Source: Bugula neritina (lineage: Eukaryota > Animalia > Bryozoa). Taken from it: a DNA stretch of 64,000 nucleotides. Below the pieces are notes generated by a model. It saw only the letters and a program-made list of their open reading frames with translations, was not told the origin of the DNA and did not search any database. Every line of letters starts with the position of its first letter. Position 1 is the first letter of the stretch. Position numbers and translations under genes: made by a program. The stretch covers positions 21,626,767 to 21,690,766 of the forward strand of contig OZ037766.1 of assembly GCA_964035545.1 (NCBI GenBank), written 5' to 3'. This document shows, one piece after another, positions 46,897-49,800 of the stretch.

Positions 46897-49800
46897 ATGT
46901 CTAGCAATTTTGAAATCACAGCAAAGGTTAGTCACAATCAGAATCACTCAAAGTCAATCAGTATCACATTCACTGATTCAGTTTCACTGATTTAGTTTGA
47001 GTTTCAGTGAGACTCAGACTGAGTGACAGACACTGTCAGTGTAACTGTCAGTGTCAGGCTCGGTGTGACTGTGAGTGTGAGACTGAGTATCAGTTTCACA
47101 CTCACTGTCAGTGTCACGGTCGGTTAAACAATTGAAATGCATTTACTGAATTAGACTTAGAGTTAGTATCACTATAAGTATAACTATTACTATTAGTATT
47201 AGTATTACTATTAATATTGCTATTAGTATTACTTATTACTATTAGTATTACTATTATTGTTAGTATTAGTATTAGTATTACTATTACTTATAAAATTAAA
47301 TATTACTATTAGTATAATACAAACTGAAATATAAAATATATTAATAATAATAATAAATAATATAAATATTACTAATATTAATAAACTATTCTTGTACTTA
47401 TAGCCTATAGGTATAGCTATCACATTTGGCTTTGCTATGCCTATAGTCTATAACTATTAGTATTGATATTAGATTTTCGTTTTGCTATTTTAGTATTTAC
47501 ATCTGCTATCTAGTGATAATGAGTTGATGATCATGATGATGATCTACTCAACTACTGAATTAGTGCTGCTATTACTATTACTATTAGCATTTCATTCATG
47601 CTGAGTCTAGGGTTATCGATGTCATTATCAACATGAACATATTCATATTAAATATGACTATGTTCATATTGATATTGATTAAATATTTAATATATCTTCA
47701 ACTTAAATACTAAAAGTAAATATAATGATAATATGAATAGTAATACTAATACTAATATATCCAATAGTTCAGTGTGAGTGTCAGCCTATAAGTACTATAA
47801 GTATAAGTATAGTGCGTAGGAATATCATTATTACTAGACTATCACCGTAGCTGCAACCAAATTCAAGCCGAATCCATGAAATAATTATAGTCATATCGAC
47901 TGACTGTAAGAGAGATCACCATGACCTATCCCTATGATCTATGTCCTATGATCACTTTAAGTTTATGGTGCTTCGTGTTTATAATGTAATAGCTAATAGA
48001 CTCAAAATAAAAGTCAGACTCATATTCATATTGATTTTAATATTCATATTACATGTGTTAGTAGTGATAAGTAATGAGTAAGCTACTTTGTAGTTGTAAG
48101 TGAAAATTTTTTGATATAAAGTTTAAAGTTGCTGTTGACAGAAAGGCTGTATTTCTTGATATTTTTGATGCTTTCTGACTGGTGACTGATTTGTGAAATA
48201 GTGAAATTTTAAGTGGAATTCAGGAAAAGAAACTTGCACTTAACACTTTGAATAGTTGTGGAGACATTCTATTCTTTTTATGTCTAAGCATTGTTGACTT
48301 TGATAGCATCTGTTTCAATGACTTACATACTTACTACTAAATGCACTACCATTCCTTGTAATGTACTTTTCTTTAGTAAAGATATGCTATAGTATTTTAG
48401 TGCATTTTCGTAAAATATTCATATTTTATAAAATAAAAACTCGAATACTAAGTTAGTTATGTTTATATGGTCAGTATTCATCTTTATTAAATAATTTTTA
48501 TATTAGTTGTTTGAGGAAATATTTTCAGCTATTGTAGTATTTTAAATTTATATCTACAGTGCTGTGAAAAAGTTTAAGGACGCCTCATTGTTTTCCATAA
48601 CAGTAATGTTCTAAGCTAATTTTAAGACATAACAAAAGCATTTCCATAAGCATGATGCCTATCAAAATGATCCTTAAGATCTCCTTATCTCATTTATACA
48701 AATCATTAGTGTCTCTTTTCATTTCCTTCCAAAATATGGGTGAAATAATGAGATACTATGCATATATGGGAATTATTCAATGTTCTCACAATTTGTGTGT
48801 ACTGTAGGATATCAGAATGTTTTACGTGAAACATAGAAAAATATTGTATGTGATTTGTTCTACACATTATAGCAGCATTGCAACACACAGTGCTTTAAAT
48901 TTTAGTATCAATGTTTTGTTGGCCAGCCTTTATTCTCAATCACTAGTCGGCAGCGACGAGGCATCAACTCGTACAGCTTCTCCAACTCGTTTTCAGTCAC
49001 AACATGATGCTATGCATGAATTACAGGCTCTATCAGTGTCACCTTAGTTGTTGGCTTCTGTGAAGAGACTATTTTAGCCATTATTGACCATGAATTTCTT
49101 ATTGGGCCGGCCAGTTAAGCGTTGAGACCCTCTGCTTTTTCATCCACTCTTTAACAGTTTTTGCCCAATGGCATGGTGCATTGTCATCTTCAAATACGTT
49201 AATTTCATTTAAAAAGAAGTTTTTTATGATTGGAAGAAGTTTAGCATTGAGATTCTCTATATATTTTTGGGCATTAACATCATTCTAGAGCAATTACTGA
49301 GTCGACCTACACCTTTTGATGCTATACAACCCCAGAACATAACACCGATAGGGTGCTTAATTGTTGTAAGAATACATTAGGGGTTATATTTCTCATACTG
49401 ATATCTTCTAACAAAACAGTTTCCAGCATGATTGTTCACATTAAATGTAGATTTATTTGAAATAATTACTTTTTTCTAATCATTCAATGTCTAACTACCA
49501 TGCTCCTTGGCCAAACCGTAGCCGGTCTTTTCGCTTCTTCTCGGTTAGTAGAGGCTTCCTTCTTGCTTTGCAGACACATAGACCATTGCTCAGCAGTCTT
49601 CGCCTTATCAGGGATGTCGAAGTTGTTGTTCCTGTCGATTCTGATCATTCTTTGCCAACTCAGAACTTGTTTTATGGCAATTTTTCTTGCTAACCCTAAT
49701 GAAAACCTTGTCATCTCCGAGTGTGCTTATTCTTGGTCGTCCACTTCCAGGTCGATCTGCTACACTACCAGTCTTCATGAACTTCCTGATAATTTGATAA

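Follow-up and report, generated by a model that had tools for sequence, protein, structure and literature searches.

Results

The 64,000-nucleotide stretch of the Bugula neritina genome analyzed here (GenBank assembly GCA_964035545.1, contig OZ037766.1, positions 21,626,767 to 21,690,766; hereafter the window) contains five tracts of 0.8-1.2 kb each, built from a degenerate 6-bp unit, the clearest of which opens the first intron of the ADA gene. The tracts have a period of 6, share a single vocabulary, show no strand bias, and in this window occupy the 5' ends of genes; at least the ADA tract has been vertically inherited. Our leading reading, held tentatively, is that these are locus-specific, ~1-kb degenerate A-S-T-A-T-N tracts that may have been built by slippage and whose 6-bp register selection may maintain for a role as promoter-proximal chromatin signal.

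An unsupervised scan for identity at a lag of six bases recovered the tracts at 10180-10956, 18437-20152, 46918-47871, 61243-62056, and 62434-63597, in agreement with the places named in the original prediction. The 18437-20152 segment is in fact two, the smoothing having bridged the island between them, and the region claimed at 60340-60560 (lag-6 identity 0.42) was recovered weakly, as 60431-60570; a hidden Markov model (HMM) retains 60413-60525 alone. Lag-6 identity is 0.42-0.58 in the tracts versus 0.29 in the background (49.7 kb). The remaining strong lag-6 segments are ordinary (TA)n, (ACT)n, or (ACATGC)n arrays, and the few short, weak segments outside the tracts are all at or below the shuffle maximum.

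The tracts are also recognizable by their words. AGTATC, ACTAAT, and AGTAAT are enriched 9-12-fold, and a four-unit pattern allowing up to two mismatches matches the window 34 times, all 34 within tracts, with no match in 100 shuffles. Because a 5-mer model trained on four tracts scores every held-out tract above all 19 control windows, we conclude that the tracts share one vocabulary. Their boundaries, with those of adjoining features, are collected in Table 1.

Table 1. Tracts and associated features of the window (o/e, observed/expected; UTR, untranslated region; RT, reverse transcriptase; LTR, long terminal repeat)
Feature	Position	Strand	Basis or remark
T1a, distal part of HENMT1-side tract	10202..10953		lag-6 scan + HMM
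Recent gypsy-type LTR element inside tract T1	10954..18455	+	RT, RNase H, integrase domains
T1b, proximal part of HENMT1-side tract	18456..18864		lag-6 scan + HMM
Untextured island, likely shared promoter of HENMT1 (-) and membrane-protein gene (+), starts inferred	18865..19083		CpG o/e ~0.9
T2, 5' of first coding exon (ATG 21498) of membrane-protein gene	19084..20158		lag-6 scan + HMM
Likely ADA promoter, CpG-retaining, upstream side without tract	46300..46800		CpG o/e 1.06-1.26
ADA first coding exon	46732..46926	+	in-frame ATG 46732 upstream, second ATG 46897
ADA tract, start of ADA intron 1	46927..48072		HMM segment 46929-48072; lag-6 identity 0.52
T4a (weak), 5' of PEN-2 UTR exon 60013-60088	60413..60525		HMM
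T4b, PEN-2 side	61242..61947		lag-6 scan + HMM
Untextured PEN-2/U2AF1 island, contains U2AF1 first coding exon (ATG 62315, donor 62359)	61948..62486		CpG o/e ~1.0
T5, U2AF1 first coding intron	62487..63544		lag-6 scan + HMM

The six-base unit

A six-phase HMM describes the tracts better than a three-phase model and as well as a twelve-phase model (log-likelihood per base -1.163, -1.206, and -1.161, respectively), and identity at lag 3 is just 0.32-0.44. Of the 3/6-bp periodicity originally proposed, the six is therefore borne out, but three is not the true period. The oriented unit, common to all tracts, is A(0.90)-S-T(0.80)-A(0.70)-T(0.90)-N. Its orientation flips with a frequency of ~0.02 per base, or about every 50 bp, and the sense-orientation fraction ranges from 0.28 to 0.66 over seven segments with no sense bias, confirming the strand symmetry claimed for the tracts. 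Because of this symmetry, we regard them as a DNA-level rather than an RNA-level feature.

In-phase identity is 0.51 at a distance of one unit, and this phase memory fades over about 10 units, reaching background by about 15. Exact tandem duplications of 6-mers occur at 10.3/kb in tracts, compared with 0.15 in control introns and 0.65 in dinucleotide shuffles; the ADA intron alone holds 12. Duplications of 2- to 5-mers are at or below shuffle level, and those of 7-mers and 9-mers reach only 0.97 and 0.39 per kb. With local duplication in the 1-6-nt range and short-range memory, the tracts have the properties of microsatellite or cryptically simple DNA. Generic slippage, however, is expected to enrich shorter units at least as much as hexamers, and the 2-5-nt units show no such enrichment.

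The base composition does not bear out two analogies that had been drawn at the outset. Tract GC content is 0.22-0.28 and CpG o/e 0-0.46, unlike CpG islands at the sequence level; CpG o/e reaches 0.9-1.3 in the adjoining islands only. The likeness to the periodic An/Tn clusters (PATCs) of nematodes also fails at this level: A-tracts number 1.9/kb versus 7.8/kb in control introns, a 4-fold depletion, and AA/TT power at 10.5 bp is 0.58 versus 1.23. Steps between two G/C bases are rare (0.041 versus 0.074 in shuffles), and the tracts are TA-rich. A different class of repeat is seen in the membrane-protein gene, where long (ACT/GCT)n triplet microsatellites with lag-3 identity of 0.83-0.89 start just past the donors of two internal introns (24194-24450 and 27964-28318).

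Position relative to genes and promoters

Of the seven 5'-most introns or intervals, five carry a tract, compared with none of 37 internal introns (Fisher p 1.9e-5; intron ends were read by eye and are accurate to a few bases) and none of five other intergenic stretches. When only homology-anchored genes are counted, the numbers are 2/3 versus 0/37 (p 0.004). Within the window, these counts uphold the original prediction that the texture marks gene 5' ends, is missing from internal introns, and is missing from BHMT and the unassigned (orphan) gene. The narrower label of first intron holds for ADA and U2AF1, which are anchored by protein homology (the latter as first coding intron), but not yet for HENMT1, the membrane-protein gene, and PEN-2, whose first exons are non-coding, whose starts are inferred, and for which several donors compete.

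ADA is the clean case. Its first coding exon is homology-anchored, and the tract runs from the donor onward (GT at 46927, HMM start at 46929), directly after exon 1 as had been claimed. The promoter is one-way and has a tract only on the transcribed side; its upstream side, the BHMT-ADA interval, is negative. At U2AF1 the distance from donor to tract is 128 bp, matching the ~130 bp first noted, although the ATG exon may itself be exon 2, given a strong donor at 62191 and an acceptor at 62287 that make a UTR exon ending at 62190 possible. For PEN-2, minus-strand donors at 62002, 61141, and 61039 compete, and T4b could be either part of an intron in the 5' UTR or sequence preceding the start of this gene. 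The untextured sequence between T4a and T4b (60560-61240) has an ETS-like site at 60832, the strong minus-strand donors 61039/61141, and, near 61000, a short piece present in multiple copies. A UTR exon of PEN-2, the start of that gene, or an inserted repeat could be located in this sequence. Candidate donors near the HENMT1/membrane-protein island are 18933 on the plus strand and 18911, 19090, and 19104 on the minus strand, and the island includes CCGGAAG at 19032, which we take to be an ETS-like site.

Against a background CpG o/e of 0.39, CpG-retaining stretches (0.9-1.3) are found at 18800-19200, 46300-46800, and 62000-62400. Two further stretches of this kind, 1700-2400 and 36700-37100, have no tract after them. 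The 1700-2400 stretch (o/e about 1.0-1.3) is tract-free and lies within an internal intron of the first gene; it could represent a mobile element or a promoter internal to the gene. In this AT-rich window a TATA pattern has 195 matches, among them one at 62106 (-) that faces PEN-2 and one at 41172 (+) before BHMT; with matches this frequent, the TATA-less label, which means no TATA box ~30 bp before a mapped start site, is unsupported.

Copy number and inheritance

The original prediction also held that the tracts are not copies of one transposable element or satellite family, and the evidence agrees. Aligned to one another, the tracts share at best short patches of low complexity, in either orientation and no longer than 207 bp at 70%, and no common ends or flanks were seen among the five. 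In run X1, single-copy pieces with a depth of 103-135 run through the ADA tract, and bin depth over the tract is spiky, from 332 to 1.4 million at common words, the top spike probably including ordinary triplet microsatellites. The mariner-like element in the same intron, by comparison, has a flat depth of 13,461-33,822. Summed bin depth is not copy number and is read here as "many loci" only. In a sister lineage ~80-95% alike (runs X2, X3, X5, X6, and X8, from two studies, X5 and X8 being one sample), words of the U2AF1 and PEN-2 tracts occur at bin depths from several thousand to ~13,000, versus 17-54 for single-copy pieces. Loose ends at these words agree at only 0.45-0.5, and they therefore stem from many different loci.

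The sister lineage also has the ADA tract. Among the eight pieces listed per run of more than 48,000, each at least 80% alike, the orthologous tract aligns over 47514-47912, its 3' half, with 17 substitutions in 216 bp (X2), 17 in 215 (X6), and 38 plus 35 gap letters in 398 (X3); the flanking intron has 24 and 31 substitutions in 248 and 25 in 264. These alignments indicate that the ADA tract is older than the split between the lineages and drifts at about the intron rate. None of the pieces listed covers 46962-47513; contigs break at repeats, so this gap was not counted as evidence of turnover. Nor did we count as such an X3 contig that continues ~260 letters beyond the ADA donor without aligning, or the U2AF1 orthologous contigs that align on either side of 62470-62896 and not across it. 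Two blocks of the PEN-2/U2AF1 island, 61954-62196 and 62261-62469, align to the sister lineage.

In a metagenome scan, a 4.5-unit pattern returned at least 120 loci, in which the HMM finds mainly short near-perfect arrays. Neither of the two loci read in sequence resembled this lineage, so the scan added no further bryozoan locus.

Genes and mobile elements of the window

The gene order is HENMT1 (-), gypsy element, membrane-protein gene (+), unassigned gene (-), BHMT, ADA, PEN-2, and U2AF1. BHMT, ADA, and PEN-2 were assigned by Pfam and HENMT1 by a PDB match (E 2e-18); when the first coding exon of HENMT1 was searched as protein, no match was obtained. The exon after the first coding exon of U2AF1 matches the U2AF small subunit from residue 16. 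The ADA first coding exon matches residues 1-66 of the B. neritina ADA model P0001 (tblastn, 87.9% over 66 amino acids), and the single match of an ADA exon was B. neritina ADA at 93% identity, which points to a Bugula-like bryozoan as the source. Between the two ATG codons, 46732-46896 encodes an in-frame N-terminal extension of 55 codons. It is basic, has many hydroxylated residues, is retained in the B. neritina model, and may be a mitochondrial targeting peptide.

PEN-2 (PSENEN) and U2AF1 are arranged head to head (58100-64000), and the PEN-2 start codon is apparently split by an intron (A|TG at 60013/59080). The human PSENEN/U2AF1L4 genes form a bidirectional pair of the same arrangement according to PMC6121907, and the pairing may represent deeply conserved microsynteny. 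The gene at 21498-30939 encodes a single-pass membrane protein with a short N terminus and many tyrosine motifs of the YDEID, YAEID, and YQEID types. An Atlas search with this protein gave no result. The likeness of these features to a transmembrane adaptor such as PAG1 is tentative.

Two mobile elements lie within or next to tracts. T1a and T1b are one tract, split by insertion of the gypsy element, whose LTRs are identical (305/305) and flanked by a GTAT target duplication. The element is CpG-rich, unlike the host DNA, and has an unbroken 1558-codon pol frame and a third open reading frame of 284 codons (17005-17859) with a weak zinc-finger match. ADA intron 1 contains a Tc1/mariner-like element (48557-50318) with matching terminal inverted repeats, TA flanks, and the remnant of a transposase helix-turn-helix; it is multi-copy in run X1 and less so in the sister lineage.

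Discussion

We propose that local 6-bp slippage duplications would build the tracts, since phase memory fades within ~10 units and exact tandem copies are nearly all 6-mers. A filter, likely weak selection, would then keep the 6-bp register and the alternating A/T core; that a filter for the 6-nt unit acts is suggested because ordinary slippage should also enrich 2-5-nt units. The most likely filter would be chromatin, perhaps in the form of loosely sitting nucleosomes, and downstream of a promoter that retains CpG, a kilobase of such DNA would facilitate early elongation. The design of the tracts would in this respect be opposite to that of the curved, 10-bp PATCs. A factor that reads arrays of many weak hexamer sites fits the same data equally. 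A broader version, which we consider doubtful, would make the tracts a genome-wide 6-bp-phased promoter code: an anti-phase counterpart of PATCs and stand-in for CpG islands, marking thousands of housekeeping genes over their first kilobase in a genome otherwise depleted of CpG, read by nucleosome mechanics or a hexamer-array-binding factor, with near-neutral sequence turnover.

Several observations weigh against selection as a chromatin signal. The 3' half of the ADA tract diverges by 7.9-9.5%, little below the flanking intron (9.5-12.5%) and alongside 8.7-11% for exon 1 and promoter, and base-level constraint is therefore weak. Eight of the 11 in-tract substitutions listed fall at non-core unit positions, but this weak support is confounded, as nine of the 11 sites are G/C and only 20% of G/C bases are core. 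Insertions within or next to tracts are tolerated, namely those of a recent 7.5-kb retroelement and of a mariner-like element. The positional count used a tract-positivity threshold chosen post hoc, the 5' introns are longer than most controls, and four of the five tracts belong to two bidirectional pairs and are hence non-independent. Short arrays of related hexamers, recognized by eye, occur in several introns of one gene in an apparently unrelated eukaryote (L062, 800-6400), and the vocabulary may for that reason be mutationally favored. Lastly, the nucleosome analogy rests on the period alone, because the telomeric repeats from which it is drawn are G-rich.

Some of these points are shared by a neutral account, possible though in our view doubtful, in which promoter-tied mutation (transcription-associated slippage, break repair, or start-site recombination) makes 6-bp AT-rich duplications and the tracts have no function. 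Near-intronic divergence in which gap letters are numerous (35 within a 411-letter piece), short phase memory, tolerated insertions, and the L062 arrays are all consistent with it, and a non-adaptive hypermutation peak is reportedly present at human start sites. It sits poorly with the lack of enrichment of 2-5-nt units and with the absence of the sense bias that would usually be expected from a transcription-coupled process; moreover, no slippage process is known to us that acts solely on 6-nt units and on a single consensus. Chance placement of decayed hexamer microsatellites, regardless of promoters, we consider very unlikely: with five tracts in one window and three gene starts only inferred, the sample is small, but the empty internal introns and other intergenic stretches, and an ADA tract that begins at the donor itself, argue for a real association.

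It is improbable that the tracts descend from hexamer arrays of an old transposon that preferred gene starts, later reshaped by slippage. The tract words are indeed found in a very large number of contigs, both of this lineage and of its sister (bin depth up to ~13,000 where single-copy pieces have ~40-50), and Helitron minisatellites have been reported as a source of PATCs (bioRxiv 10.64898/2026.08.08.743475). Nevertheless, the patchy alignments between tracts, the lack of shared ends or flanks, and the contrast in depth between the ADA tract and the true transposon of its intron speak against such seeds.

An action in the nascent transcript, through U1 and premature polyadenylation, RNA structure, or intron-mediated enhancement, seems quite improbable. 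The U1-poly(A)-signal promoter axis combines enrichment of sense U1 sites with depletion of poly(A) signals. Sense poly(A) signals in the tracts are indeed below shuffles (2.5/kb versus 4.9, z -2.7), but control introns are similar at 2.9, and U1-complementary GT sites are not enriched (0.95/kb sense, 1.14 antisense, 1.16 in control introns); relative to control introns, neither half of the pattern is seen. Sites resembling 3' splice sites are depleted (z -3.4), and predicted folding is slightly better than in shuffles (z -0.88 ± 0.32 versus -0.17 ± 0.15 in controls). Inverted repeats are frequent (8.75/kb versus 3.33/kb), but their excess over shuffles is present in control introns too, and the tracts have no orientation bias. 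What does favor an RNA-level role is the location in the first transcribed kilobase, as described for enhancing introns in PMC6374622. Separately, explanations based on AP-1 sites and on hairpins proved weak or negative, and an Rfam search returned no matches.

If the association extends genome-wide, the tracts would be a lineage-specific mark of active gene starts, legible from the sequence itself, in a phylum whose regulatory genomics is sparse. They would give gene annotation a direct means of predicting start sites and allow a natural test of whether promoter-proximal chromatin is set by the periodicity of DNA alone rather than by motifs. Even if neutral, near-exclusive 6-bp duplication of one consensus beside promoters would be a mutational signature undescribed in the literature searched. 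The gypsy insertion, which moved half of T1 7.5 kb from its likely promoter, offers a natural experiment on tract maintenance.

Comparison with known systems

Promoter-proximal intron signatures, promoter microsatellites, and lag-6 correlations at bound DNA are already known; tracts such as these are not described in the freely available literature searched or in the main text of two bryozoan genome papers. In promoter-proximal microsatellites, short units of the slippage type are reportedly concentrated near gene starts, and cryptic simplicity denotes shuffled short motifs of the same type. Unlike either, the tracts have a single unit length and one degenerate consensus across loci, and extend for ~1 kb with a drifting unit.

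PATCs shield germline genes from silencing. In Caenorhabditis elegans they are 10-bp-phased An/Tn clusters, helix-phased and curved, as described in PMC4947018 and bioRxiv 10.64898/2026.08.08.743475. Like them, the tracts are kilobase-scale, non-coding, and intronic, are defined by periodicity rather than by a motif, and are proposed to act via DNA mechanics; unlike them, they are 6-bp-periodic and A-tract-poor, have low 10.5-bp power, and are limited to 5' introns in this window. Telomeric 6-bp repeats form the least stable, rotationally unphased nucleosomes according to PMC2853135. The tracts differ from these in being AT-rich, degenerate, interstitial, and promoter-adjoining, and they are not TTAGGG.

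Signals of intron-mediated enhancement act inside the first transcribed kilobase to raise mRNA output. For such signals, PMC6374622 describes a dispersed, poorly conserved oligomer signature, captured by IMEter, that marks promoter-proximal introns within the first kilobase. The oligomer composition of the tracts likewise separates promoter-proximal from distal introns, by the counts given above and by held-out prediction in one window. The tracts differ from IMEter signals in the strict 6-bp register of their tandem duplications and in running in both orientations, and are known here from sequence alone. Finally, repeat-symmetry elements at transcription-factor-bound DNA show correlation peaks at lags 3 and 6 according to bioRxiv 10.1101/375956; these emerge as an average over many bound sites, whereas the tracts are directly visible and extend over a kilobase.
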